From an uncultured Planctomycetaceae bacterium (lineage in GTDB: Bacteria > Planctomycetota > Phycisphaerae > SM23-33), in the NCBI GenBank assembly GCA_964417755.1, contig CAYQJH010000003.1, forward strand, positions 1 through 60,573: DNA of 60,573 nucleotides, read 5' to 3'. Shown piece after piece: positions 3,949 through 44,184 of the stretch; within the stretch, counting starts at the first letter, position 1, and each line of letters begins with the position of its first letter. The notes beneath the pieces were generated by a model. The model was not told where the DNA came from and ran no database searches. It saw nothing but the letters and a program-made list of their open reading frames with translations. A program made the position numbers and the translations under genes.

Positions 3949-4367
3949 GCATCCAACCACAGCCTGCATAGCAGCGGAATCCCCTTGAGGCGCTTGCCAT
4001 CGACCGGAACACGGAGCGATGCCGGCATCGAGCCGATGGTCGCAATCATCTGGTATAGGCCTGGCCGGCCGATCGGCGTTCCCTTGGTCAGCACCTCCAT
4101 TACGGCCGACAGGCCGGGGATCATCGCGTTGTGCTCTTTCAGGACCTTCCATACCTCCGTCTGCGCGCAATCACTGTTGGCCCGGATCAGGATTTCCTTG
4201 GCCGCATCGACGGCCTGGGACACCTGGCCTTGCATGGCCAGCAGCTTTACCTTTCGCATGAGCACAAGGCTCGAGCGCGGAAAGAGTCCTTCTGCTTTTG
4301 CGAACTTATCGGGCGGGACCGCCCTGCAGTTAACCCCTTTGCAAAACTGGGGATAAGCCGGTGACAA
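3807..4367 (-). pseudogene. Possible TPR/helical-repeat gene fragment
   Basis: 'FAKAEGLFPRSSLVLMRKVKLLAMQGQVSQAVDAAKEIL' resembles a TPR. There is no clear start or RBS, and the 3' part overlaps the PEP-CTERM fragment. Confidence 0.35.
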
Positions 4368-4372
4368 CTGGC

Positions 4373-4402
4373 TTGACAGACCGATCAGAATATGGCTAGT
4401 AT
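4373..4402 (+). promoter_or_regulatory. Putative sigma70 promoter of the giant lyase gene
   Basis: TTGACA (4373-4378), an 18-bp spacer and TAGTAT (4397-4402), about 380 bp upstream of the ATG at 4784. Confidence 0.5.
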
Positions 4403-4783
4403 TCCGATGTTGTCATTTTCTTCGAGTGCTTCTCCCTAAGTATTAGCTGCACCGTTAGCGTCTGTGGACACCGCATTGTATTGAGCCAATGGCAGTAGAA
4501 GTGGGTGATAAAGGATTCAGCCCAATGCCATTTAGGCGAGAGAGCTTCGCTCGCTCTTCAACGCCGTTCCAGACAAGATCAACATGTCATGGCTTCGTTT
4601 CTGCAAGCATTTGAACATCGTCAATGACAAGGCCGCTATGGGTTCAATGTAAGAACAGCCATGGTCAGGCTGAGCTAAAGCTGTCTCATCGTCAGCAGGT
4701 CTTACGTGGCCTTCTATAAAGATCTGCAACATTTCGCTAAACATTTGCGTTGCACGAGACTCGAAACATCAAAGGAGAATCCG

Positions 4784-7700
4784 ATGAGTATTCTGCGAGC
4801 GGTTGTCATTGCTTCCGTAGTGGTAGCCACGTCGGCTGTCTTGTCGGCACAAACGGTGCGTATAGGCAATTTGGATGTGCCCGCGGACAGCGCCCTGGCC
4901 AGAAAAGAGCACCCGCGACTGCTCTTTACGACGGCCGACCTGCCGGCCATTCGAGCAAGGATTGCCAAGCCGGGGCTGCAGTCAATTTACAATCAGTTGA
5001 AGCAGACCGTGGACCAGCAGATGGGCCAGAACATGGACGCCACCCAGATGTCGGTCCCCCTGGGGCTGCTGTACCACATCACGGGCGATGAAAGATACGG
5101 CCAGGCCTGCCGCGCCGTGACGCTTGGGGCTACGTTTGGCGTCTACGCCACCGACGGCCTCTATGGTTATGACCTGATCTATAACCTGCTGACCCCCGCG
5201 GAACGCAGCGCATGTGAAGCAAAGATGCTTGCCCAAGCCCGGACGGGCAACGCAAACTCGACCCATCTGACGCCCCTGACCTATGCCTTGGGCTTATGGG
5301 GCAACGGCACGAATGATGCCGAGGTCGGAGGGATCATCTCTCAAATGTATCCAGCCATGGTGACGCGAAAGGCATACCTGGATCGATGGGCGGCTGACCG
5401 CGGTGGCGACGGCAACAGCCATGACTACCTCGGTCAGCATGAGTATGTCGGAACGATGGGAGTCTTGCAGGCCTGGAAGTCCTCCACGGGCCAGGACTTG
5501 TTCGAAGGCTTCAATTGGGCCAAGGCGATGGGCCCCTACTACATTTACAACATCCTGCCGGGAAGCACACGAACCACACACATTGGCGTCGATGGCTACG
5601 GATCTGCCTTCTATCCGTTCGAGACCGGCGCAGAGGCCTTTGTCTCCATCGCGCAGAACAAGTGGCAGGACGGCGTGACGGGATGGTGGGTGAGGAACAC
5701 TGTCTGCGGAGGCTCTCAGCCCTACTACTATATACTGTTCAAGTATTGGGGCATGGTGTTGTACTTTGACCCCGACGTGCCGGACATCGCCCCAAGCCAG
5801 ATGCCGCAGGACATGCTCTTCAAGACGCGCGGCTACATGTACTCCCGAAGCGACTGGGGTAACGACGCCACCTTCGTGAATTTCGCGTGCGGGCGTTTCG
5901 AGCTCGACAGCCGCAACTGCAATCACAATAACTCCTTCATCATCTATCGCAAGTCCTACCTGGCCTGCGATACCGGCGCAAAAATCGGAAACAATGAAGA
6001 AAACACTGTTAATTCCGATGGCCAACACTACTCGAAGTGGTTCCCGCAGACCATTGCACACAATTCGATCACGGTAGGCACCGCCAACAATCTCAGTGGC
6101 CTGGTCACCTCGATGTGCGGTGGGCAGGCTGGGCGAGTCCCGGATGAGTGGCTCACGATGTACGGGATGCCGGTCTCCGAGGAAAACAGGATGACTCGCC
6201 AGGCCGGTCAGATCACGGCCTACGAAACATCCCCCGAGTTCTCCTATGTCGTCGGCGATGCTCGCTGCTCGTATGACCCGCACGTGGTCAATGGCTTTAC
6301 CCGCCAGTTTGTATACATCCGGCCTGGTGCGGTCGTCATCTTCGACCGTGTCAATGGAGTCAATGCAAACGATCCCAAACGATGGTATCTGCACACTATG
6401 GAGCAGCCGACATGCACCGATGGCACGTTGAATGCTGATACCTCCATACATTCAAGCGGGCACTTCCTGGCTACCGGCACTACACTCCGTGCTGCGCATG
6501 GCGGCAGCGCGCTGTTTTCCAAGACGGTTCTGCCCGAAAGTGCTATAGTCCGCGTGCTGGGCGGCGCCGGTCACCAGTTCGAGGTCAACGGCGTCAACTA
6601 CGACATGTACGCTCCTTGGTATCAGACGGTCGGGACACCCGAATACCTGGAGAATATCGGCATGGGCATGTGGCGCGCCGAGGTCGAGCCACAGGTCAAG
6701 CAGGCGAATGACGTATTCCTGCACGTCCTGTGGTCCACGACGGACAGCGTCCAGAATATGTTTAACGTTACGAAGATTTTGCAGAACGGCCAGGTGGGTG
6801 TTTCATTCACCGCTGACGGCGTCGGAGTGGAAGTGACCTTCGCCCAGACCGGCACCGTAGCCGGACACATCAAGATCACCAAGAGCGGAAATGTGATCTG
6901 CGACCGTGCACTGGCAACCCAGATCGAGGACAACTATCAGAAGTGGAGCAGCGATTCGCGGTTCCAGAACTGGATGACCAGCCCGAATATGAAGTCCGCG
7001 ATAGGCCAAGGGCCTGTGCTGTCCTTCCTTCAGCCCAGCGGAACCACCGTTGTGCAGGCAGGAAGCACCCTGTATGTCAGCGTCACCGCCCGCGATTACG
7101 ACGGCACGATCGGGAACTTGAAGCTCTTCCATAATGGGCAGGAGCTCCCTCGTCAGGACGGCACTTACCCATACGAGTGGGGCGTTGGCAGCAATGATCC
7201 GCTCCTGATGAGCGTAACTGCCGGTGTCCATACCCTCACGGTTTCATGCATAGATAGTCTTGGGTATTCCGCAACAACCTCGATGAGCATTATCGTCAGC
7301 GGCGGTGCTCCAACCGCTGTGAATGACGCCTACATGGTAATGAAAGATCAGGTGCTCAATGTTGCAGCCTCCGGCGTGCTGGCCAACGACACCGGCACAA
7401 GTCTGACAGCTGTCAAGGTCACCGACCCCGCGCATGGGACATTGACCTTGAATTCCAATGGCTCATTCACCTATACACCCGCTGCCGGCTACACGGGCCC
7501 CGACAACTTCACGTATAACGCTCACAATTCCGGCGGCGATAGCAACCTGGCTACCGTGAACATTACGGTCTCTTCTGCGGCGCGTGCGGTGCTGGTGGAC
7601 TTTGGCGGCACGCTTACCAACAATCCTGGCGCTGATGGCCGGTATTGGAACAACATGCGGTATTTTGACCTGCCTGAAACGATCGCCAATCTGGTGGACA

Positions 7701-10700
7701 GCACTAACGTCTCAACTGGTCTTTCCTTGACCAAGGTTGTCAACTTCCCCTGGGCCGGCAATGGCGTATTGGCCGAGCCTTTCATCAACGGATATCCGAA
7801 TTCAGCCATTCGCGACAGTGTGATGTCAACATCGTCGGGCAACGGCAAGTACAAGTTCTACAACTTGGACACCTCAGGCAACACCACTTACAACCTGACT
7901 ATCTTTGGATCCTCCGGCGATAGCGGTGTTACGCGGTACAACGTGATCGGCTATTCGACCACCAACCAGCAGGTCAATGCCGAGAACAACAAGACGGTCT
8001 TCAATACCTTCAACAGCGTCCAGCCTGATGCCGGCGGCAATATCTATGTGGAAGTGGTTCTGGTATCCGGCAGCTATGCCCCACTGAACTTGATCCAGTT
8101 GGATATCAATCACAAGCCTGTTGCGACCAATGATTCCTACAGCGTGGCCGCCAGCCAGCAATTGAACGTGGCTGCGTCCGGCGTGTTGGTCAATGATACC
8201 GATTCCGACAGCCAGACGTTGACGGCCATCAAGGTCAGCGATCCTTCTCATGGCACGTTGACTTTGAATTCCAATGGTTCTTTCACCTATACGCCAACCT
8301 TCGGCTACTCCGGCAGCGACAGCTTTACCTACAAGGCCAGCGACGGTTCTACGGACAGCAACACGGCTACGGTGAACATCACCGTGACGCCGGCATCGGG
8401 AAGCCTGCGAACTGTCCTGGTGGACTTCGGCTGTTGGAACCTTACTGCCAGTCCTGGTGCTGATGGCAGGTACTGGAACAACATGCGGTATTTCGACGTG
8501 CCCGAGACGATCAGCAACCTGGTTGACAGCTCCAATGCCGCGACCGGTCTTTCGTTGACTAAGGTTGCCAATTTCCCCTGGGCCTGCGACACCCAGTTGA
8601 CCGAGTCGTTCATCAACGGATACCCCAACTCGGCCATCACCGACGGCTTATGTTCCACTTCAGCCGGCAACGGCAAGTATCGGTTCTATAACCTGGACGC
8701 CTCCGGCAACACCGTTTACAACCTGACGATCTTTGGCTCTTGCAGCAGCGGCGACGTCACGCAGTACAACGTGATCGGCTATTCGACCACAAGCCAGCAG
8801 ATCAGTGTTGCAAACAACAAGACGGTCTTTAGGACGTTCAACAATGTTCAGCCGGATGCCAGTGGCTATATCTACGTGGAAGTTGTGCGGGTATCAGGCA
8901 CCAACGCACCGATCAACCTGATCCAGTTGGATATCAACTCCAAGCCCGTTGCTACCAACGATTCCTATAGCATAGCCAGCGGCCAGCCGTTGGGTGTGGC
9001 AGCTCCAGGTGTATTGACCAACGACACCGACGCTGACGGCCAGCCGCTGACGGCCATCAAGGTCAGCGATCCCGCGCATGGCACGTTGAGCTTGATTTCT
9101 AATGGATCGTTTACGTATACGCCGACGACCGGCTTCTCCGGTAGCGACAGCTTCACCTATAAGGCCAGTGATGGCTTCATGGACAGCAACACGGCCACCG
9201 TGAACATTACGGTGACAGCATCAATGCCCGTGGCCATCGATGATGTCTATACGATTAACGCCAACCAGACCCTGAACGTCTCAGCCGCCGGCGTGTTGGC
9301 CAACGACACCGGGTCGGGCCTCACGGCCGTCAAGGTTATGGATCCTTCGCACGGCGCGTTGACCTTGAACTCCAATGGTTCATTCACCTATACACCGACG
9401 ACCGGCTATTCGGGCAGCGACAGTTTCACGTACAAGGCTCACAATGCCGGCGGTGACAGCAACACGGCCACCGTGAACATCATGGTGACGGCAGCTTCGG
9501 GAAGCCTGCACACGATATTGGTGGACTTCGGCTGTTGGAACCTTACTGCCAGTCCTGGCGCCGATGGCAGGTACTGGAACAACATGCGGTATTTCGATGT
9601 GCCCGAGACGATCAGCAACCTGGTTGACAGCGCCAACGCTGCGACCGGTATTTCTTTGACTAAAGTTGTCAATTTCCCCTGGGCCTGCGACAACATGTTG
9701 TCCGAGTCGTTCATCAACGGATACCCCAACTCGGCTATCACAGACGGCTTATGTTCCACTTCAGCCGGCAACGGCAAGTACAGGTTCTATAACCTGGACG
9801 CCTCCGGCAACACCGTTTACAACCTGACCATCTTTGGCTCTTGCAGCAGCGGCGACCTCACGCAGTATAACGTGATTGGCTATTCGACCACCAGCCAGCA
9901 GGTCAGTGTCGCTGGCAACAAGACGGTCTTTAATACGTTCAACAATGTTCAGCCCGATGCCAGCGGCTATATCTACGTGGAAGTTGTGCGGGTATCAGGC
10001 ACCAACGCACCGATCAACCTGATCCAGTTGGACATCAACCACAAGCCGGTTGCTGCCAATGACTCCTACAGCGTGGTCAGCGGCCAGCAGTTGATAGTGC
10101 CGATCTCCGGGGTTTTGACCAATGATACGGACTCTGACGGCCAGATGCTGACAGCCATCAAGGTCTCTAATCCGACACATGGCACAGTGACGTTGAATGC
10201 CGATGGTTCGCTGATATACACTCCGACGACGGGCTATTCGGGCAGCGACAGCTTCACTTACAAGGCAAATGATGGCTCTTCAGACAGCAACACGGCCACG
10301 GTGAACATTACCGTGACGGCGGCTCCGGCCAGTGCACGCACGGTGCTGGTGGACTTCGGCATTTGGAACCTGACGGGCAGTCCTGGAGCCGATGGCAGGT
10401 ACTGGAACAACATGCGGTTTTTCGACATACCCGAGACGATCAGCAACCTGGTTGACAGCAGCAATGCCGCTACCGGTCTTTCCTTGACCAAGGTTGTCAA
10501 CTTCCCTTGGGTCTGTGACAATCAGTTGTCCGATCCCTTCATCAACGGATACCCCAATTCAGCCATTACTGACGGCGTGTGTTCCACTTCAGCCGGCAAC
10601 GGCAAGTACAAGTTCTACAACCTGGATGCCTCCGGCAGCACCACGTACAACCTGACGATCTTTGGCTCTTGCGTTTACGGCGACGTCACGCAGTACAACG

Positions 10701-13099
10701 TGATTGGCTACTCGACTACCAGCCAGCAGGTCAGCGTTGGAAACAATAAGACGGTCTTCAATACCTTCAACAATGTTCAGCCGGACGCCGGCGGCAATAT
10801 CTATGTTGAAGTCGTATTGGTGTCCGGAGGCTATGCACCGCTGAACATGATTCAGTTGGACATCAATCACAAGCCGGTTGCTACCAATGACTCCTACAGC
10901 GTGGTCAGCGGCCAGCAGTTGAGCGTGGCGGCTTCGGGCGTGTTGACCAACGACACGGATTCTGACGGCCAGACGCTGACGGCTATCAAGATAAGCGATC
11001 CGTCACATGGCAGCGTCACGTTGAATTCCAATGGTTCATTCACCTATACGCCCACGACCGGCTATTCGGGCAGCGACAGCTTCACCTACAAGGCCAACGA
11101 TGGCTCTGCAGACAGCAACACAGCCACGGTGAACATTACCGTGACGGCAGCAGCGGGAAGCCTTCGCACCGTTCTGGTGGACTTCGGCCTTTGGACCCTG
11201 AGCGGCAGTCCTGGCGCCGATGGCAGGTACTGGAACAACATGCGGTATTTTGACGTGCCTGAGACGATCAGCAATCTGGTTGACAGCACCAATGCAGCGA
11301 CCGGGCTTTCCTTGACCAAGGTTGTCAACTTCGCCTGGGCCTGCGACAACCAGTTGACCGAGTCGTTCATCAACGGATACCCCAACTCGGCCATTACTGA
11401 CGGCGTATGTTCAAGTTCAGCCAGCAGCGGCAAGTACAAGTTCTACAACTTGGACACCACAGGCAACACCGTTTACAATTTGACGATCTTTGGATCTTGC
11501 AGCAGCGGCGGCACTACGCAGTACAACGTGATCGGCTACTCGACCACCAGCCAGCAGGTCAATGTCGTAAACAACAAGACGGTCTTTAACACCTTCAATA
11601 ACGTTCAGCCTGATACCGGCGGCAATATCTACGTGGAAGTTGCGTGGGTATCCGGTACGTATGCGCCACTCAACATGATCCGGTTGGACATCAATCACAA
11701 GCCGGTTGCTACCAACGATTCCTACAGCGTGGCAAGCGGCCAGCAGTTGAGCGTCGCTGCTGCGGGCGTGTTGACCAACGATACCGACTCTGACGGCCAG
11801 ACGCTGACGGCCGTCAAAGTTACTGATCCAACGCATGGCACGGTGACCTTGAATTCCAATGGTTCATTCACCTATACGCCGACGACTGGTTACTCGGGCA
11901 GCGATAGTTTCACCTACAAGGTCTACGACGGCTCTGCATACAGCAACACGGCCACGGTGAACATCACGGTAACGGCCACAATGCGCACGGTGCTTGTGGA
12001 CTTTGGTTGGACCGTTACTGTCAACCCCGCCGCTGATGGCAGGTACTGGAACAACATACAGTATTTCGACCTGCCTGAGACGATCAGCAACCTGGTTGAC
12101 AGCACCAATGCCGCAACCGGCGTTTCTTTGACCCGAGTTGTCAACTCACCTTGGGCCAGCGGCAGCCAATTGTCCGAGTCTTTCATCAATGGATACCCGA
12201 ACTCGGCCATTAGCGACAACGTGTGTTCAACTTCAGCCGGCAGCGGCAAGTACAAGTTCTATAACCTCGACGCCTCCGGCGACACCACTTACAGCCTGAC
12301 GATCTTTGGCTCTTACGGTGGTGGCGGTGTCACGCAGTACAACGTGATCGGCTATTCGACCACCAGCCAGCAGGTCAGCGTTGGAAACAACAAGACGGTC
12401 TTTAATACCTTTAACAACGTCCAGCCTGACGCCAGCGGCAACATCTATGTCGAAGTGGTGCTGGTATCCGGTACGAATGCACCGATCAACCTGATCCAGT
12501 TGGATATCGTTCCCGGTGGCGGTGAAGGCATGCAGGGCCAGCAGATGCAGGCGTTCGGCGGTGCAGAGCTTGCAGTTCTGCCCGCTGGCGGCAAGGTTTC
12601 CAGGAAGCCGGCCGCTTCTGAAAACAAGGCCATCGCTCCGGCGTCGGCTCCAGCCGCCCAGAGCGGCACGGCCATCAACGTCAACTTCCAGCCGGCCGGC
12701 GTTGCCTCGCCCGCGGGCTACCTGAGTGACAGCGGCCTGACCTATGGCAATCGAGCCGGTTACAGCTATGGCTGGGACAAGGACCTCTCCGGCTTTGCCG
12801 TCCAGCGCAAGAACGCAAGTTCGCCGGATGTCCGCTATGACACGTCGATCATGCTGCTGAAGGATGCGACGTGGGAAGTGGCCGTGCCCAACGGCATGTA
12901 CAACGTCAAGATCGTAGCCGGCGGCAACTCAGCCACGCTCAAGTCGCAGAAGTTTGCGGTAGAGGGCGTGCCGACCACGCAGGCCAAGGCCGGGCAGTAT
13001 CTTGAGGAGACCGTGACCGTGGTGGTGACCGACGGCAGGCTCACCATCAATGCCTCAGCCGGCAGCAGCATCTGCTTCATCCAGATCGCCGGAAGGTAG
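4784..13099 (+). CDS. Giant secreted heparinase II/III-like polysaccharide lyase with Ig/cadherin-like repeats, 6 unnamed ~173-aa repeats and a C-terminal CBM-like domain
   Basis: RBS AAGGAG before the ATG at 4784, then a signal peptide. Lyase-type motifs: EHPRLLFT, YMYSRSDWGNDATF, HNNSFIIYR, TIAHNSITV, YVVGDA, FTRQFVYIRP..VVIFDRV. One Big-like domain, 7 'P.A.NDSY...GVL.ND...HG.LTLNSNGSFTYTP..GYSG.DSFTY' domains, and a C-terminal 'INVNFQP...YGW...RYDT...WEVAVPNGMY' beta-sandwich. Confidence 0.9.
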   Translation: MSILRAVVIASVVVATSAVLSAQTVRIGNLDVPADSALARKEHPRLLFTTADLPAIRARIAKPGLQSIYNQLKQTVDQQMGQNMDATQMSVPLGLLYHITGDERYGQACRAVTLGATFGVYATDGLYGYDLIYNLLTPAERSACEAKMLAQARTGNANSTHLTPLTYALGLWGNGTNDAEVGGIISQMYPAMVTRKAYLDRWAADRGGDGNSHDYLGQHEYVGTMGVLQAWKSSTGQDLFEGFNWAKAMGPYYIYNILPGSTRTTHIGVDGYGSAFYPFETGAEAFVSIAQNKWQDGVTGWWVRNTVCGGSQPYYYILFKYWGMVLYFDPDVPDIAPSQMPQDMLFKTRGYMYSRSDWGNDATFVNFACGRFELDSRNCNHNNSFIIYRKSYLACDTGAKIGNNEENTVNSDGQHYSKWFPQTIAHNSITVGTANNLSGLVTSMCGGQAGRVPDEWLTMYGMPVSEENRMTRQAGQITAYETSPEFSYVVGDARCSYDPHVVNGFTRQFVYIRPGAVVIFDRVNGVNANDPKRWYLHTMEQPTCTDGTLNADTSIHSSGHFLATGTTLRAAHGGSALFSKTVLPESAIVRVLGGAGHQFEVNGVNYDMYAPWYQTVGTPEYLENIGMGMWRAEVEPQVKQANDVFLHVLWSTTDSVQNMFNVTKILQNGQVGVSFTADGVGVEVTFAQTGTVAGHIKITKSGNVICDRALATQIEDNYQKWSSDSRFQNWMTSPNMKSAIGQGPVLSFLQPSGTTVVQAGSTLYVSVTARDYDGTIGNLKLFHNGQELPRQDGTYPYEWGVGSNDPLLMSVTAGVHTLTVSCIDSLGYSATTSMSIIVSGGAPTAVNDAYMVMKDQVLNVAASGVLANDTGTSLTAVKVTDPAHGTLTLNSNGSFTYTPAAGYTGPDNFTYNAHNSGGDSNLATVNITVSSAARAVLVDFGGTLTNNPGADGRYWNNMRYFDLPETIANLVDSTNVSTGLSLTKVVNFPWAGNGVLAEPFINGYPNSAIRDSVMSTSSGNGKYKFYNLDTSGNTTYNLTIFGSSGDSGVTRYNVIGYSTTNQQVNAENNKTVFNTFNSVQPDAGGNIYVEVVLVSGSYAPLNLIQLDINHKPVATNDSYSVAASQQLNVAASGVLVNDTDSDSQTLTAIKVSDPSHGTLTLNSNGSFTYTPTFGYSGSDSFTYKASDGSTDSNTATVNITVTPASGSLRTVLVDFGCWNLTASPGADGRYWNNMRYFDVPETISNLVDSSNAATGLSLTKVANFPWACDTQLTESFINGYPNSAITDGLCSTSAGNGKYRFYNLDASGNTVYNLTIFGSCSSGDVTQYNVIGYSTTSQQISVANNKTVFRTFNNVQPDASGYIYVEVVRVSGTNAPINLIQLDINSKPVATNDSYSIASGQPLGVAAPGVLTNDTDADGQPLTAIKVSDPAHGTLSLISNGSFTYTPTTGFSGSDSFTYKASDGFMDSNTATVNITVTASMPVAIDDVYTINANQTLNVSAAGVLANDTGSGLTAVKVMDPSHGALTLNSNGSFTYTPTTGYSGSDSFTYKAHNAGGDSNTATVNIMVTAASGSLHTILVDFGCWNLTASPGADGRYWNNMRYFDVPETISNLVDSANAATGISLTKVVNFPWACDNMLSESFINGYPNSAITDGLCSTSAGNGKYRFYNLDASGNTVYNLTIFGSCSSGDLTQYNVIGYSTTSQQVSVAGNKTVFNTFNNVQPDASGYIYVEVVRVSGTNAPINLIQLDINHKPVAANDSYSVVSGQQLIVPISGVLTNDTDSDGQMLTAIKVSNPTHGTVTLNADGSLIYTPTTGYSGSDSFTYKANDGSSDSNTATVNITVTAAPASARTVLVDFGIWNLTGSPGADGRYWNNMRFFDIPETISNLVDSSNAATGLSLTKVVNFPWVCDNQLSDPFINGYPNSAITDGVCSTSAGNGKYKFYNLDASGSTTYNLTIFGSCVYGDVTQYNVIGYSTTSQQVSVGNNKTVFNTFNNVQPDAGGNIYVEVVLVSGGYAPLNMIQLDINHKPVATNDSYSVVSGQQLSVAASGVLTNDTDSDGQTLTAIKISDPSHGSVTLNSNGSFTYTPTTGYSGSDSFTYKANDGSADSNTATVNITVTAAAGSLRTVLVDFGLWTLSGSPGADGRYWNNMRYFDVPETISNLVDSTNAATGLSLTKVVNFAWACDNQLTESFINGYPNSAITDGVCSSSASSGKYKFYNLDTTGNTVYNLTIFGSCSSGGTTQYNVIGYSTTSQQVNVVNNKTVFNTFNNVQPDTGGNIYVEVAWVSGTYAPLNMIRLDINHKPVATNDSYSVASGQQLSVAAAGVLTNDTDSDGQTLTAVKVTDPTHGTVTLNSNGSFTYTPTTGYSGSDSFTYKVYDGSAYSNTATVNITVTATMRTVLVDFGWTVTVNPAADGRYWNNIQYFDLPETISNLVDSTNAATGVSLTRVVNSPWASGSQLSESFINGYPNSAISDNVCSTSAGSGKYKFYNLDASGDTTYSLTIFGSYGGGGVTQYNVIGYSTTSQQVSVGNNKTVFNTFNNVQPDASGNIYVEVVLVSGTNAPINLIQLDIVPGGGEGMQGQQMQAFGGAELAVLPAGGKVSRKPAASENKAIAPASAPAAQSGTAINVNFQPAGVASPAGYLSDSGLTYGNRAGYSYGWDKDLSGFAVQRKNASSPDVRYDTSIMLLKDATWEVAVPNGMYNVKIVAGGNSATLKSQKFAVEGVPTTQAKAGQYLEETVTVVVTDGRLTINASAGSSICFIQIAGR
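7589..12508 (+). repeat. Six copies of a ~520-bp coding repeat interleaved with Ig-like repeats
   Basis: Units at about 7589-8107, 8414-8935, 9515-10036, 10343-10864, 11171-11692 and 11990-12508. Periods are 825, 1101, 828, 828 and 819 bp. Confidence 0.95.
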
Positions 13100-13191
13100 A
13101 TTCCGACAATCCTGAAGCAGTGATGCAGTAGCAGCAGACAACAACAGGCACGGCGGCTCTAAAGGGCTGCCGTGCCTGTTGATTTCATTGC
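12804..13191 (+). repeat. Direct repeat copy 1 (388 bp, identical to 43797-44184)
   Basis: Matches the second copy base for base by eye, at an offset of 30993 bp. It covers the last ~98 codons, the stop and the hairpin. Near-identity extends upstream to ~12664. Confidence 0.93.
13142..13181. terminator. GC-rich hairpin, probable bidirectional terminator
   Basis: CAACAGGCACGGC...GCCGTGCCTGTTG is a perfect 13-bp stem, extended by wobble pairs, lying between convergent genes. U-tracts are weak. Confidence 0.6.
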
Positions 13192-14253
13192 ACGCTGATC
13201 AGGCTGCCTCACTGCGACCAGGTGGGCCTCGTCAGCCGCCAAGCGATGCAGATCACCGGTCATAATCTCGTGGGCTGCTTTCCTGGCTGCTGGACAAGCG
13301 TAGGCCAGTTTGCCCAGCAAATATGGGCCGAGGGTTCGCCCCGCCTGAGCGTATCGTCCGGAAAAGACGATAGCGTCCAGGCCGCCCAGGGCGGCAATGC
13401 CCATCCCGCAGGCCAGGAGAATGCGATATCGCAACAAGTCGCGTGCCAGCCGATGCGACGACGCAGGGCTAAGCACGCTGTCCAGATTGACGGCTGAACC
13501 GGCCAAGGCCGCGATGCCGCTGTCTCTCGTGAGCATCTGGTTGATCTGTTCAGGGCCCAGGTGCAGTCTGCTGCTCAAGGCCAGCACGATGCTGGGGTCA
13601 AGTTCGCCACAGGCTTTCTCGCCTGGCAGGCCCTCCATCGGCGTGGCGCCGCTGGTCACCATAAGGGGGCATCTGCCAACAACGGCAGCCAGTTCCGGCC
13701 TTTTGTCCAGGCAAATTGACAGCACGCGAGCAGGTCCTTGCAGATGTTCCTGGCAAAGGTGCGCTGCGTGCCGACAGGCAGCGGCGTGGAACAGGCCGTG
13801 ATAGCCGAATCGCCGCAAGCGGGGATGGCTTGATGCCTCCAGTCCATAGAACTGCTCGCGCGGAGGTAGGCCAACGAAGAAGGCCGTCTGGAATGACATC
13901 GCCACCGGCAGATGTGGAAAAGCTCCGCGAATTTCCTGCAGAAGCAGGCGGCAGACCGGCAGATGCAGGGGGGCCTGCTGCGCAAGGGCCTCCAGATCGT
14001 CCAGTGTCTGCGAGCCAGCCAGCACGGGCCCGGCGAAGCGCTCTCCGCCGTATGGCACAATGATGCTGATGAGATCGATCTTGCCGCCCATTGCGCGAGC
14101 GTCGGCCGTCAACTGAGTGAGCAATTGACTTATGGCCGTTGCCTCGCTGAATGGTCCATGAATGCTCGCCTGACGCAGTGCCTGACGCGATTGGTCGGCA
14201 AAATAGGAGCAGGCGATTGTTCGCAACGAAGGGGCAAGGACGAGTATGTTCAT
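13159..14253 (-). CDS. Acetate kinase-like protein with degenerate catalytic motifs
   Basis: Colinear with AckA (APLHLP, FQTAFF, RRFGYHGLFH, ATPMEGLPG..ACGELDP, GGLDAIVFSG) but lacks NxGSSS, HR.VHGG and TNEE. RBS GGAG before the ATG at 14253. Confidence 0.85.
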   Translation of the reverse strand: MNILVLAPSLRTIACSYFADQSRQALRQASIHGPFSEATAISQLLTQLTADARAMGGKIDLISIIVPYGGERFAGPVLAGSQTLDDLEALAQQAPLHLPVCRLLLQEIRGAFPHLPVAMSFQTAFFVGLPPREQFYGLEASSHPRLRRFGYHGLFHAAACRHAAHLCQEHLQGPARVLSICLDKRPELAAVVGRCPLMVTSGATPMEGLPGEKACGELDPSIVLALSSRLHLGPEQINQMLTRDSGIAALAGSAVNLDSVLSPASSHRLARDLLRYRILLACGMGIAALGGLDAIVFSGRYAQAGRTLGPYLLGKLAYACPAARKAAHEIMTGDLHRLAADEAHLVAVRQPDQRAMKSTGTAAL

Positions 14254-14286
14254 TGAAGACTCCTGCCGCAGGTCATCGGCCGCCAT

Positions 14287-15495
14287 TTATGCTGCCGCGA
14301 TAGAGGCCCTCACAAGGCGATGCGTCTGCCGCGCGATGGCCAACTCCTCGTTGGTGGCGATGACGAGGAGCCTGACGGGTGAATCAGCCGTGGCGATATC
14401 GGCCGGCAAGTTGGCTAAGCATTCATTCTTCCGCGGGTCGATATTGACGCCCATCGCTTCCAGGCCACTGCACAGGGCCCAGCGGACATTGCTGATTGTC
14501 TCGCCAATGGTATCCGTGAAGATGATTGCCTTTGCCCTGCCCACTGCCGCCAGGTAAGCCCCGAGATACTTGCGAATGCGCCACAGGTACACCTGCGTCG
14601 CGAGGCGGTTTTGGCCGTCGCCAGCCTCGCCAGCAGCTTTGAGCAAGGCATCGCGAATGTCAGAGGACTGCCCCGTCAGGCCCAGCACGCCGCTCTTGTT
14701 GTTGAGCAGCCTTTCGACCGCCTGGCAATCGCCCATCGCGCCGCAAAGCAATTGCAACGTGACAGCCGGGTCAAGATCGCCGCATCGCGTACTCATCACC
14801 AGGCCCTGCAGAGGCGAGTAGCCCATCGTGTTGTCAATGCTGCGCCCGCCGACGATCGCGCAGAGACTGGCTCCGCCGCTGCCTAAGTGGCACGACACGG
14901 CGTCTAGTTGATCCATCGGGCAATGCAGCAGCTTGACCGCCTCCTGCGCCACGTACTGATGGCTGGTCCCGTGGAAGCCGTACTTGCGGATTCCCAGCTT
15001 GCGGCGCACATCGCCAGGAATGGCGTACGTGCGGGCGTGTCGCGGAATGTGCGAGTGAAAGGCGGTGTCGAACACGACTACCTGCGGCAGCGAGGGATAT
15101 TGCTGCATGCATGCCTTGACCAGTGCGATGGACGGCGGATTGTGGATCGGCGCCAGGTCGGCCACCGCATCCAACTTCACCAGGTCGCTGGCGAAGATTC
15201 GTGCATGCTCGCTGAAGAGTTGCCCGCCGTGGACGAACCGGTGGCCGATCGCATCGATTGGCTGGCGGCCCTTGGATAGAAGGGCCATCACCTCCGCAAA
15301 GGCAGATGCGTGGCTGTCCATCGGCGTCTGGTGCGTGCTGCTCTGCCCGCCGGCCTTGTGAATGATCCTTGATGGACAAGCCGTCGGCGGGCCGATCCGC
15401 TGCGCTTCGCCGCCGGCCATTTCACGCTCGCTCGGCATATCGATCAGCCGATACTTCAGCGATGAACTCCCGCAATTAAATACCAGAATGTTCAC
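14287..15495 (-). CDS. ackA: Acetate/propionate kinase
   Basis: VFNCGSSSLKY, GHRFVHGG, LAPIHNP, FDTAFH, RKYGFHGTSH, CHLGSGAS, TRCGDLDP, ATNEELAIA. GTG start at 15495 after AGAGGA. Confidence 0.92.
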   Translation of the reverse strand: MNILVFNCGSSSLKYRLIDMPSEREMAGGEAQRIGPPTACPSRIIHKAGGQSSTHQTPMDSHASAFAEVMALLSKGRQPIDAIGHRFVHGGQLFSEHARIFASDLVKLDAVADLAPIHNPPSIALVKACMQQYPSLPQVVVFDTAFHSHIPRHARTYAIPGDVRRKLGIRKYGFHGTSHQYVAQEAVKLLHCPMDQLDAVSCHLGSGGASLCAIVGGRSIDNTMGYSPLQGLVMSTRCGDLDPAVTLQLLCGAMGDCQAVERLLNNKSGVLGLTGQSSDIRDALLKAAGEAGDGQNRLATQVYLWRIRKYLGAYLAAVGRAKAIIFTDTIGETISNVRWALCSGLEAMGVNIDPRKNECLANLPADIATADSPVRLLVIATNEELAIARQTHRLVRASIAAA

Positions 15496-15621
15496 GTCCG
15501 TCCTCTCTGAAAGCCTCAAAGCAGGGCGATGGACGTCCTTGTCCACCGCGCCGCCACTTCAGTCAGAAATCGCATCATGCGATTCGCAAACGCATCTACG
15601 GTCAAAACGCTGCTGGGATAG

Positions 15622-37878: not shown

Positions 37879-38070
37879 ATGCCTACGATTGTCTCGATGG
37901 CTGCACCGGTGCTGGGCGGGCTGCTGGTAGCCGATGAGGTGATCGACCTGCTTCTGCCGGTGATCTTCAACTGGTATCAGTTGCGCAAGTGGAGAAAGCT
38001 GCACATGACGATCTCGCAATCCAGAACGAACGGCGACCTATTGCCAGTCGGGGTCGCCGCGGCCGTCTAG
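37879..38070 (+). pseudogene. Remnant resembling the last TM helix of a CusA/CzcA RND transporter
   Basis: 'MAAPVLGGLLVADEVIDLLLPVIFNW..RKWRK' resembles the terminal 'P.A.P..GG....L...PV.F' helix of heavy-metal RND pumps. The rest of such a gene is absent. Confidence 0.5.
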
Positions 38071-38584
38071 CAGTACTTCAACATTGTCTTTGCATATAGC
38101 GAGCGGGGGAACAGTAGAGCAGGAGACCGCAGGCTCGATCCCGTTTCGTTTCCTGTTCCACTGCTCGCCTGCTCTGCAGCTGGGCACCGCGCTGATTCGA
38201 TCACCCGCCCGAACGTCTGGCGCGAAATATTCATCTGCCGGGCGGCGTTTGCATATTCCCTAAAAAAAAATCTTTGGTTTATTCGCGAATCCTATTATTA
38301 TCGAGGCCTCAACTCGTAGAGTCAGATCTCGTCTGTTGCAGACGTGCGCTTTGTGGAGTCAAAGACGTTTCGTTTGTTCCTTTGAATAACGGCAGTAAGG
38401 CCCGCGGGCGATAAGGAGATCCAGCGCAGGCCCGCGCCGTTGCAGCTCGTCTCGCTTGCGTCCTTGCGCAAGACAGAAGAGTCATGTCCTATATTTGTCC
38501 GCACTGGGCACCGGCCCTTAAGGCTTTGGTGAGAATCGTGTACGTGGTCGAAACACTGGGCAAACAGAAGAAAGGAAGACGCCG

Positions 38585-41500
38585 ATGCACCCTCGAATCC
38601 CCAAATCTGCAATCGCTGTCTGTCTGATGGTCTTGCTGATGGCATCGATGGCCTATGGAGGAGTGCTCTTCTCCAGCAACTGGCGCAGCGGCCTGGGAGG
38701 TTCCGAAACCGCCCTCCTGGACAACGGCCTATGGGACGAAGACCACAATACCTCGCAATTGGACGTAAAGAGAGGTGCTCCAGGTGGGCATAACTACCTG
38801 GCCGTGTCTTTGCAGGACATGGCCTGGACCGGCGTGATAGAGAACAACCTCTATTACAATCAATACTCTGATATGTATTACCGGCTGTACGCTCGCATCA
38901 ACCCAATCAATCCGCCAAGCTTCACTTACTATGGCTATCACGGCACCGAGGACCATGAAGCCCCCGGGGCTGAGACGATGGTCTTCTTCGGCTACCTGAT
39001 CCCAAGCGGCACCAATGGACTATATCAGACGTACATCTACTCCTACGTCCAGGGGCCAACCGGCGGAGATTTTCGCACCGCGATCGACATGGAGATGGAC
39101 AAGTGGTACCGCGTCGAGGGCCACATGCAGTTCGTGGACCACGACAACCCCGGCCACACGAAGTGGCACATGCGGATATATGATGACAACAACAGTCTCA
39201 TAAAGCAGGACACCGAGTTCTACGGCATTTCGTACTACTATCCACACTCGCTGGACTATCTCTACAGCGTCGAAAACGGCAGCATCCATTACAATGGCAC
39301 CAGGAAGTCATGGATGGTCGGCAACAACGGGCCTGCCGGCGCCTCGGGCTCGGGACGAGGCCCGGACCATTCCGCCCTGGAAGTTCGGACGGACAGCTGG
39401 TGCGGGCCTGTGCAGGCCATCGGCCTGTACTACGACTTCCAGAACAGCAGCACCACCGGCTGGACGCCTGCAACACCTTCGCGCTGGACAGCGGGGCTGC
39501 AACTGGGCAGCACGACCAACAGGGGCTATTACATCAACACCAGCAGTTTCTCGAACCTCTCGGGCAACCGCCTGGGTGAGCTTTCCTTCATCACCAGCCA
39601 GACCTACGGCGATTTCACCTACACCTGCAAGGCTGCCACGCTGGAGGCAGCAGGCAATTCAACAGCCGATTATGCACTGGTCTTCGGCTACCAGGATGCC
39701 AACAACTACTACTATGCGAATTTCAATCGCACAGCCGGTCAGACTGCGTTATACAAGGTTGTCGGCGGCACGCGCCAGGCAGCCTTGGCGACGTATGGCA
39801 CGGCGCTGCTGAGCGGCACGGCCTACCACGACATCGAAGTCAGTCGAAGCGGCAACGCAATCACAGCCAAGTACGACGGCACGACGGTATTGTCCGCCAG
39901 CGACTCGACGTTCATGACCGGCAAGTTCGGCGTGGGCAGCTTTGACGATGCAGCCACCTTTGACGAGATCTGCATCACGCCGCCAAATCGCGTCCCGACG
40001 GCTACCAATGACAGCTTCACCGTCACCGGCACGTACTACAGCAACACCATCCTGACCAACATAATGACCAACGACAGCGATCCGGACGGCGATCCGCTTC
40101 GCATGATGAGGCAGACCTATTGCTCGCACGGCAGCATCATGAGCAACACAGCCGGCATCATCACCTACTGGCCGACGCCGGGCTATACGGGAAGCGACAG
40201 CTTCACCTACAAGGTCAATGACGGCCAGGCCGACAGCGCCGCAGCCACCGTCACGTTCAATGTGACAGCCGCCGAGCCGGCCGTTCGCACGGTGCTGGTG
40301 GACTTCGGCAACTGGTGGACGAACAACCCGGCAGCCGACAGCAGGTACTGGAACAACCTGCAGTATTTCGACGTGCCGGAGACCATTGACAACCTGGTTG
40401 ATAGCACCAACGTCGCAACCGGCATATCGTTGACCCGCGTGGTGAACTTCCCCTCGCGCAGCAATCTTCAACTTACTGAAGAGTTCATCGACGGATACCC
40501 CTACACCGCCATCAGCGACAATCTCTATTCAACCGCCGGCGGCAGCGGAAAGCTGAAGTTCTACAACCTGGCGACCTCCGGCACCACGTACAACCTGAAG
40601 ATATTCGGCTCGACGGGTCTCAGCGGCGTGGCGCAGTACAACGTCACCGGGGCAACGACCACGAGCCAGCAACTGAATTGCCAGAACAACAAGTCCGCAT
40701 ACGCAATATTCAACAATGTTCAGGCCGATGCCAGCGGCTGCATCTATGTTGAAGTGGTGCGGGTCTCCGGCGACTGCGCGCCGATCAGTTTCATCCAGAT
40801 GACGATAGGTTCCACAACACCGGCGCCAACGGCCGTCGCCGACTCGTATTCAACCTATGCCAATCAAGCACTGAATGTCTCAGCACCCGGCGTACTGGGC
40901 AATGACACCGGTTCCAACCTGACAGCTGTCAAGGTCAGCGATCCCTCGCACGGATCACTGACTCTGAACTCAAATGGCTCGTTCGTCTATACGCCGACCA
41001 CCGGTTACAGCGGAAGCGACAGCTTCACCTACAAGGCCCATAACAGCGGCGGCGACAGCAACACCGTAACGGTGAGCCTGACGATAGCCCCAACACCCTC
41101 CGGCACTCTGCGCACCGTTCTGGTTGATTTCTGGAATTATGTGACCCCCAGCCCGGGCGCCGACGGCAGATACTGGAACAATATTCAGTACTTCGATCTG
41201 CCCGAGACGATTGCCAACCTGGTTGACAGCACGAATGCGGCGACGGGCATCTCTTTGACCAAGGCCGTCGTGTTCCCGTGGGCGGGCAACCTCTTGTTGT
41301 CCGAAACATTCCTCAATGGCTATCCTTACACCGCCATCAGCGATGCCGTATATTCATCAGCCTCCAGCAGCGGCAAGCTGAGGTTCTACAACCTCGATAC
41401 CTCCGGCAATGTTACCTACAACCTGACGCTCTTCGGGTCTAGCATTGATGGCGGCCTCACGCAGTACAACGTGATCGGCTACTCCACGACCAGCAAGCAG

Positions 41501-44092: not shown

Positions 44093-44184
44093 ATTCCGAC
44101 AATCCTGAAGCAGTGATGCAGTAGCAGCAGACAACAACAGGCACGGCGGCTCTAAAGGGCTGCCGTGCCTGTTGATTTCATTGC
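43797..44184 (+). repeat. Direct repeat copy 2 (identical to 12804-13191)
   Basis: Same sequence as copy 1. It diverges at 43796 and at 44185. Confidence 0.93.
44135..44174. terminator. GC-rich hairpin, probable bidirectional terminator (second copy)
   Basis: Same stem-loop as 13142-13181, again between convergent genes. Confidence 0.6.

Follow-up and report, generated by a model that had tools for sequence, protein, structure and literature searches.

A secreted heparinase II-like protein on a long cadherin-like stalk, a probable acidic-polysaccharide lyase from an uncultured planctomycete

A giant protein with a heparinase II-like head

The first 60,573 nucleotides of contig CAYQJH010000003.1 (assembly GCA_964417755.1), from an uncultured Planctomycetaceae bacterium and referred to here as the window, contain at positions 4784-13099 of the forward strand a giant gene encoding a protein of 2,771 residues. 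With a probability of about 0.6, this protein is a secreted multimodular lyase of acidic polysaccharides, held on its substrate by a rod of cadherin-like repeats, copies of a domain named U here, and an end domain of the YxiM type. The family to which its N-terminal head belongs is related to heparinase II of polysaccharide lyase family 21 (PL21) and to the lyases of PL15, PL17 and PL39. Most likely, the head would break a polymer containing uronic acid by beta-elimination. Tyr215 would serve as both base and acid, and the carboxylate and the enolate would be stabilised by Arg377 and a nearby histidine (H161, H213 or H219). As natural substrate, an acidic glycan of algae, plants or microbes is more probable than heparin. 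Behind the head, a predicted rod of about 1,740 residues, in which calcium-cadherin-like spacers alternate with six U domains resembling carbohydrate-binding modules (CBMs) and lead to the YxiM-type domain, would bind an insoluble or gel-like substrate multivalently and with high avidity, so that the catalytic head would stay at work on it. The gene arose by duplication of one of many stand-alone paralogues of the head and its fusion to a stalk cassette, a cassette that carries other enzyme heads as well, both in the same genome and in relatives.

Gene model and domain order

A single frame is open from 4706 to 13099 on the forward strand, and its ATG at 4784 is preceded, 8 nt upstream, by the ribosome-binding site AAGGAG. 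The product opens with the Sec-type signal peptide MSILRAVVIASVVVATSAVLSA (aa 1-23, 4784-4852), followed by Gln, and is predicted to be one Sec-exported, multimodular secreted protein. After the signal peptide comes the head (aa 24-743, 4853-7012), a heparinase-II-like (alpha/alpha) toroid plus beta-sandwich, and then a bacterial immunoglobulin-like (Ig) domain of the Big_7 type (aa ~744-836, 7013-7291; Pfam PF17957, E 9.8e-9), at which the fusion joint lies. The stalk (aa 838-2577, about 1,740 aa) runs in the order Cad1-U1-Cad2-U2-Cad3-Cad4-U3-Cad5-U4-Cad6-U5-Cad7-U6, the adjacent Cad3 and Cad4 being the sole break in the alternation. It is followed by a linker rich in Gly, Gln, Ala and Pro (aa 2578-2639, 12515-12700) and by a YxiM-like, galactose-binding-like end domain (aa 2640-2771, 12701-13099 with the stop codon).

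A first-pass annotation made from the letters alone had proposed a single protein with a heparinase II/III-like head, a repetitive stalk of about 1,700 aa in which seven cadherin-like and six unnamed domains alternate, and a terminal CBM-like domain, and had remarked on its size relative to characterised heparinases. Pfam searches, motif mapping and a search of the genome bear out this count of domains, the similarity of the head holds in sequence and in fold, and the head does stand in a far larger context than the characterised enzymes. The alternation is regular everywhere except at Cad3 and Cad4, and the Big_7 domain had been missed.

Fold and relatives of the head

Heparinase II was the only match of the head when it was searched with phmmer against the sequences of the Protein Data Bank (PDB; 2FUQ, E 7e-19, aa 336-689), and a profile of the head family found the same enzyme with an E-value of 7e-56. 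An AlphaFold2 model of the head, built on 46 family sequences, reached a predicted local distance difference test score (pLDDT) of 90.2 and a predicted template modelling score (pTM) of 0.91, and consists of an alpha-helical toroid followed by beta-sheet domains. In a Foldseek search of the PDB with this model, heparinase II ranked first (2FUT, 3E7J and 2FUQ, E 4e-33 to 2e-32, template modelling (TM) scores 0.62-0.64), and the next matches were PL15 (Atu3025 and exoHep), human dermatan-sulfate epimerase 1, PL17, PL39, PL35, PL40, PL12 and PL33. The top matches are all lyases or epimerases with a toroid plus beta-sheet build, and on the model the assignment of the head to the heparinase-II type of fold is secure.

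At least 145 homologues of the head were found, almost all of them stand-alone proteins of about 730-810 aa with identities from 76% down to 30%. Those with named sources come from Pirellulales, Phycisphaerae, other Planctomycetota and Kiritimatiellae, and the genome collection adds one metagenome-assembled genome (MAG) each from Armatimonadia and Lentisphaeria. Most of these homologues carry a precomputed match to the Pfam family Hepar_II_III_C (PF07940). A survey of carbohydrate-active enzymes (CAZymes) in Planctomycetota is silent on these lyase families (PMC11131199).

The putative active site

In the related lyases, catalysis has been assigned to a tyrosine and one or two histidines: His202, Tyr257 and His406 in heparinase II, His311, Tyr365 and His531 in Atu3025, His337, Tyr390 and His555 in exoHep, Tyr258 and His413 with Asn201 and His202 in the PL17 alginate lyase, and Tyr239 and His405 in the PL39 alginate lyase (PMC12088678, PMC7904915). 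The histidine of the beta domain is listed as catalytic for PL12, PL15, PL17, PL21 and PL39 (PMC12088678, PMC7904915), and H531 of Atu3025 and H555 of exoHep are described as essential (PMC7904915). In profile alignments, Tyr365 of Atu3025 falls on Tyr215 of the head (5426-5428), a tyrosine in 46 of 46 family sequences, and by way of PL15 this residue would also be the equivalent of Y257 in heparinase II. Asp425 and His451 of heparinase II are kept as Asp396 and His426, the latter within an IAHNS segment. The zinc site of heparinase II is reportedly formed by H408, D425 and H451, and the equivalent residues are C379, D396 and H426 in the giant protein and N, D and H in most of the family. Column conservation adds R206, R377 (5912-5914), A425 and N427 to the invariant residues and shows H426, D396, H213 and H219 to be nearly invariant; such invariance fits a conserved active site under selection. 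His161 (5264-5266) precedes Tyr215 by 54 residues and stands at the start of the inner helix before that of the tyrosine. HMMER left its loop unaligned to the PDB sequences; the spacing fits the canonical distance of 52-56 residues between the toroid histidine and the tyrosine in PL15, PL17, PL21 and PL39, a range derived from the residue numbering given in PMC12088678. The active site of the head is read here as conserved but non-canonical, with a geometry deduced from the alignments.

Several observations weigh against the reading of the protein as a lyase held on its substrate. His406 of heparinase II and His531 of Atu3025 align with Arg377, an arginine in 46 of 46 family sequences, and this alignment is anchored by a conserved Asp and Phe 4 and 8 residues downstream. 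The position of His408 in heparinase II and His533 in Atu3025 is Asn in the family and Cys379 in the giant protein, and that of Asp410 in heparinase II is Asp in the family and His381 in the giant protein. The giant protein and its closest relatives have changed two motif positions (N379 to Cys, D381 to His), and the resulting R-N-C-x-H variant is common only to them. In its closest homologues the position of His161 shows E, D, W or N, and in most of the family a W-R motif occurs near it in place of the histidine. The mapping itself was made from family-profile hidden Markov model alignments and predicted secondary structure. For the catalytic Tyr, His and Asn, on whose presence the first-pass annotation made its interpretation depend, the answer is mixed: the tyrosine is invariant, the histidine of the beta domain is replaced family-wide by arginine, and that of the toroid, ambiguous here, is not conserved even in the closest homologues.

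The family models add to these points. The HepB equivalog model NF045571 gave the head 104.3 bits against a cut-off of 600 and covered model positions 355-708 only. PF07940 gave 17.2 bits (E 0.0037) against a gathering threshold of 24, and this with the head alone, a Pfam scan of the whole 2,771-aa protein returning no head match. With both thresholds missed, membership of PL21 is not secure on sequence, and "heparinase" is used here as the name of a fold that implies no substrate. Among the homologues, no characterised member of the head family was found. Next to the giant gene in the window there are no glycan genes, neither sulfatase nor transporter nor sugar catabolism. As for the holding part of the reading, the best Foldseek matches of U (CBM61, CBM35, CBM6, CBM16 and CBM11) are weak, with an E-value of 3e-4 at best and TM scores of 0.33-0.41.

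The stalk of cadherin-like repeats and U domains

Exactly seven stretches of the giant protein match the Big_9, Cadherin_5 and Cadherin_4 families of Pfam, and the scores are far above the cut-offs (PF17892 390 bits, PF17963 484 bits and the tandem-95 model NF012211 344 bits, against 26.5, 23.6 and 90). The first of these cadherin-like repeats lies at 7295-7573 and repeats 2-7 at 8117-8389, 8942-9217, 9218-9490, 10046-10318, 10874-11146 and 11699-11974. Motif mapping and the genome search agree on exactly six copies of U, a domain of about 178 aa, at 7580-8113, 8405-8941, 9506-10042, 10334-10870, 11162-11698 and 11981-12514, which are 74-93% identical in protein and 79-86% in DNA. As the repeat units diverge to this extent in DNA and no long exact internal repeats occur, collapse of the repeats during assembly is unlikely. 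Cysteines vary in number between the copies (U1 0, U2 4, U3 4, U4 3, U5 3, U6 1) and fall at recurrent positions, a pattern suggestive of optional disulfides.

U has no match in Pfam (E up to 10), in NCBIfam or among PDB sequences. Its ten copies in this genome all lie within two giant genes; it is absent from 60 relatives, and of 250 further genomes drawn from the whole phylum 10 contain it, a rare and patchy distribution. A profile built from the ten copies and searched against 1.84 billion cluster representatives found only 264 proteins at E <= 1e-3, and the best external match scored 125 bits as compared with about 360 bits for the copies of the window. The three closest matches (P0124, P0126 and P0127) share the whole cassette of cadherin-like repeats, U, linker and end domain, and two of the three have beta-helix heads. 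Arrays of U elsewhere are likewise found on beta-helix enzymes; more distant ones form the N-termini of SGNH/GDSL esterases secreted by the type IX secretion system (T9SS) or occur in proteins with leucine-rich repeat (LRR) and Ig arrays, and some small proteins consist of a signal peptide, a distant U and a PEP-CTERM signal.

The AlphaFold2 model of U is a beta-sandwich with a pLDDT of 95.5, and besides the CBMs its structural matches include the CBM-like receptor-binding domains of binary toxins. Across 28 diverse copies one Asp, a Trp-Asn pair and one Leu are invariant, a pattern compatible with a putative sugar-binding site, though no proof of one. The possibility that U is a diverged form of the YxiM-like end domain was rejected (hhalign probability 0.5%).

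The end domain and the question of anchoring

The terminal CBM-like domain is supported by a score of 31.3 bits (E 2e-7) to PF21254, AGA-YXIM_GBD, against a gathering threshold of 27, and by a match (E 1e-4) to the N-terminal domain of Bacillus subtilis YxiM, PDB 2O14. Gly/Ala-rich linkers similar to the one preceding it occur in the paralogous giant described below and in P0124, P0126 and P0127. Apart from the second giant, two further secreted proteins encoded in this genome finish with the end domain, both of about 830 aa and with end domains 49-53% identical. One (locus L026, contig 10, 588-3083) has a weak PL14-like head, a fibronectin type III (FN3) domain and a type I dockerin; the other (locus L027, contig 107, 602-3088) has a TIM-barrel-like DUF6298 domain and a type I dockerin.

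In one relative (G015), the end domain directly follows the signal peptide of a protein. Its role as a C-terminal sorting signal was rejected on account of this N-terminal position and of its match to a CBM-like Pfam family, and the position suggests that it behaves as a binding module rather than as a sorting tag. The giant protein ends ...SSICFIQIAGR inside a globular domain, and searches of Pfam and NCBIfam found no PEP-CTERM signal, T9SS Por_Secre_tail, LPXTG motif or transmembrane anchor in it. The adhesin model NF045619 (BapA/Bap/LapF) gave 118.5 bits against a cut-off of 180, all from the cadherin-like repeats. The small protein encoded upstream at 1812-2582 on the reverse strand scores as a PEP-CTERM protein, so the genome does use this kind of sorting, and neither giant carries the signal. 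The surface-tethered adhesin of the first-pass annotation is therefore not upheld: tethering to the surface is unsupported, and the end domain could still bind a glycan of the cell envelope.

A second giant gene and an identical tail

A paralogous giant gene of 1,835 aa lies at 38585-44092 on the forward strand of the window, with five cadherin-like repeats, four copies of U, and the same linker and end domain. Its head consists of an unassigned N-terminal domain of about 280 aa, with no Pfam match, and a CBM66-like module (levanase 4AZZ, E 1.6e-8). Kinship of this N-terminal domain with the PL14-like head on contig 10 was considered and dropped, as there was no significant similarity. The stalks of the two giant genes are about 75% identical in DNA, and the longest exact repeat between the genes is confined to their 3' tails, where a block of 388 bp is 100% identical (12804-13191 and 43797-44184). 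Within this block lie the final 296 bases of coding sequence and the stop codon, followed by 92 bases of downstream sequence in which a GC-rich hairpin with a T-rich run forms a probable intrinsic terminator (13145-13178 and 44138-44171). The identical tail suggests a recent gene conversion or tail duplication; an assembly join at a repeat is less likely. A minus-strand ackA-like reading frame (13159-14286) ends inside the block. The G+C content of both giant genes (4001-12000 and 38001-44000) is 55-57% as compared with 60-63% in the flanks, which could stem from the repeats, rich in Thr, Ser and Asn, or from a foreign origin.

Origin of the fusion

About eight to ten loci in the same genome match the head family, several of them cut by contig ends. 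They lie on contigs C238, C197, C248, C20, C8, C22 and C109 (among them loci L037, L041 and L042), with two copies in tandem on C238, and most relatives of the same family have no strong match. A complete stand-alone paralogue of 757 aa on contig 238 matches the head along its full length with 74% identity, and its signal peptide is nearly identical to that of the giant protein. Moreover, the stand-alone homologues end a few residues past the point at which the giant protein runs into Big_7. From this paralogue and from the position of the homologues' C-termini at the Big_7 joint, it follows that the giant gene is a copy of a stand-alone enzyme gene, joined to the stalk at the native C-terminus of the enzyme. 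When proteins of 1,500-4,850 aa were sought among 5.8 billion sequences, the head was found in no others except two HepB-like proteins of Paenibacillus, with 26-28% identity.

Genomic context

The neighbours of the giant gene are acetate kinases, an M20 peptidase, a sigma-54 activator, a PspA/AAA+/ABC cluster and a lipoyl-synthase fusion, and a context like that of a polysaccharide utilisation locus was rejected for the window, these genes being unrelated to glycans. The acetate-kinase-family genes are two in tandem at 13162-15546 on the reverse strand; the downstream one scores 101 bits to the Pfam model as compared with 376, as expected of a degenerate paralogue. The stand-alone homologues of the head, for their part, adjoin genes for GH9, a Pel9A-like lyase, GH78, a glucuronoyl-esterase (GCE)-like protein, a GH29 fucosidase and an FGE-sulfatase. 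These degradative CAZyme neighbours support a degradative role for the head family, and they hint at complex acidic glycans of plants or algae as substrates in preference to heparin. Three matches to DUF1559 in this genome, compared with zero in 14 control genomes, agree with its placement among the planctomycetes.

Alternative explanations

An explanation that is unlikely, yet deserves serious weight, is that the heparinase-II fold has been kept and the head is not a lyase, serving instead uronate C5-epimerisation, hydrolysis or glycan binding only. It draws on the invariant Arg377 at the position of H406 in heparinase II and H531 in Atu3025, on the variable toroid histidine, on the sub-threshold lyase models and the missing characterised member, and on human dermatan-sulfate epimerase 1, which ranks ninth among the fold matches. 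The epimerase nevertheless ranks below heparinase II and the PL15 lyases in that search, and it uses the same Tyr/His/His set, so that loss of the histidine argues equally against epimerase chemistry. Other toroid lyases, of PL5 and PL8, use an arginine beside the catalytic tyrosine, which counts against this explanation too. A role in binding only is difficult to reconcile with the invariance of the tyrosine and several nearby polar residues, and the neighbours of the stand-alone homologues are degradative enzymes. Improbable, and more so, is a protein that is chiefly an adhesin or matrix protein of the BapA/cadherin type, with the head as a lectin-like tip or a matrix-remodelling accessory and the end domain holding it at the surface. 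Seven calcium-cadherin-like repeats, weak matches to the BapA/LapF and CshA models, and the occurrence of U-like domains in LRR/Ig-array and small PEP-CTERM proteins would agree with it, as would the end domains of the two giants, 96-100% identical as expected if they docked to one partner. Against these stand the failure of NF045619 to reach its threshold (118 of 180 bits), the lack of a known anchor motif, and an end domain that is N-terminal in the G015 protein and matches a CBM-like family. Every head found on the cassette is enzyme-like (heparinase-II-like, beta-helix, PL14-like or DUF6298), and the head considered here is a full-length copy, 74% identical, of a stand-alone enzyme.

It is very improbable that the giant reading frame is an assembly chimera of an enzyme gene and an unrelated repeat protein, or that its repeat number is wrong. 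The genome is a MAG of 285 contigs in which several head paralogues end at contig edges, and the exact 388-bp repeat joins the 3' ends of the two giant genes; on the other side, no stop interrupts the run of 2,771 codons that spans the joint, and the joint falls exactly at a domain boundary with Big_7 next. The divergence of the internal repeats in DNA also speaks against it, the second gene is equally organised, and the combination of cadherin-like repeats, U, linker and end domain recurs in independent metagenomic proteins. The substrate-held lyase is accordingly preferred over these explanations. A bolder extension of it, speculative and rather doubtful when taken as a whole, is that the unit from cadherin-like repeat to end domain is a transferable substrate-tethering cassette, placed behind heads by recombination through the 388-bp block as a handle, with U founding a new CBM family and the head a new Tyr/Arg family of lyases.

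Significance

Multimodular lyases with arrays of CBMs are already familiar for insoluble or gel-like glycans, and the principle is not new. What is new is a large head family, spread over Planctomycetota, Kiritimatiellae and Lentisphaeria, in which arginine replaces a catalytic histidine thought to be universal. Characterising one member would give either a new PL family with a variant of the mechanism or a new activity on the scaffold. New as well is U as a candidate CBM family, a beta-sandwich well defined in sequence and with no close solved structure, and so is the module shuffling within one genome, which holds a 74% identical stand-alone copy, the fused giant, a second giant with another head, and probable gene conversion of the tail. 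The findings bear on the degradation of acidic polysaccharides in sea and soil by the poorly studied bacteria of the Planctomycetes-Verrucomicrobia-Chlamydiae (PVC) group.

Comparison with known systems

Heparinase II of Pedobacter heparinus (HepB, PL21; 2FUQ, 2FUT and 3E7J) is the best match of the head in structure and in sequence. The two share the three-part fold, a similar size (about 720 aa for the head, 747 aa for the enzyme), the IAHNS segment with H451, the equivalent of D425 and the catalytic tyrosine. They differ in that the identity is only 18-19% and the head is fused to a non-catalytic tail of about 2,000 aa, and in that H406 is replaced here by Arg, H408 by Cys (Asn in the family) and D410 by His. 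The toroid histidine is not conserved in the head family either. Heparin is an unlikely substrate. The exo-lyases of PL15 (Atu3025, 3A0O and 3AFL; BIexoHep, 6LJA) and the alginate lyases of PL17 and PL39 belong to the same fold class (Foldseek E 1e-19 to 1e-25). In PL15, Tyr365 of Atu3025 falls on the invariant Tyr215 and the region of the H-x-H-x-D motif aligns, whereas the essential histidine (H531 of Atu3025, H555 of exoHep) is Arg in the head, and the identity is 13-16%.

Other systems resemble the architecture rather than the catalytic part. P0124, P0126 and P0127, metagenomic proteins of 681-1,159 aa, contain the closest relatives of U (114-125 bits) and end domains 65-68% identical; they are much shorter, with a single copy of U and beta-helix (pectate-lyase-like) heads or a dockerin in place of a heparinase-II-like head. 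The two HepB-like proteins of Paenibacillus (P0274 and P0275, about 1,660 aa) carry F5/8 type C, FN3 and other modules and document that heads of the heparinase-II type do occur on large multi-CBM proteins; their identity of 26-28% extends over half of the head, and they have neither cadherin-like repeats nor U. Secreted carbohydrases from Saccharophagus degradans carry cadherin-like modules, CHDL and CADG (PMC2386152), and Fraiberg et al. 2011, in the form in which that work is cited in PMC3124978, reported cadherin-like modules as CBMs. The Saccharophagus enzymes likewise have calcium-cadherin-like repeats appended to secreted polysaccharide-degrading enzymes, but with one or a few repeats beside recognised CBMs, while the giant protein has seven repeats alternating with the novel U. 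In conclusion, given these cadherin-module precedents and the large multi-CBM proteins with HepB-like heads, the giant protein is best seen as an enzyme of a known type in an unusual arrangement.

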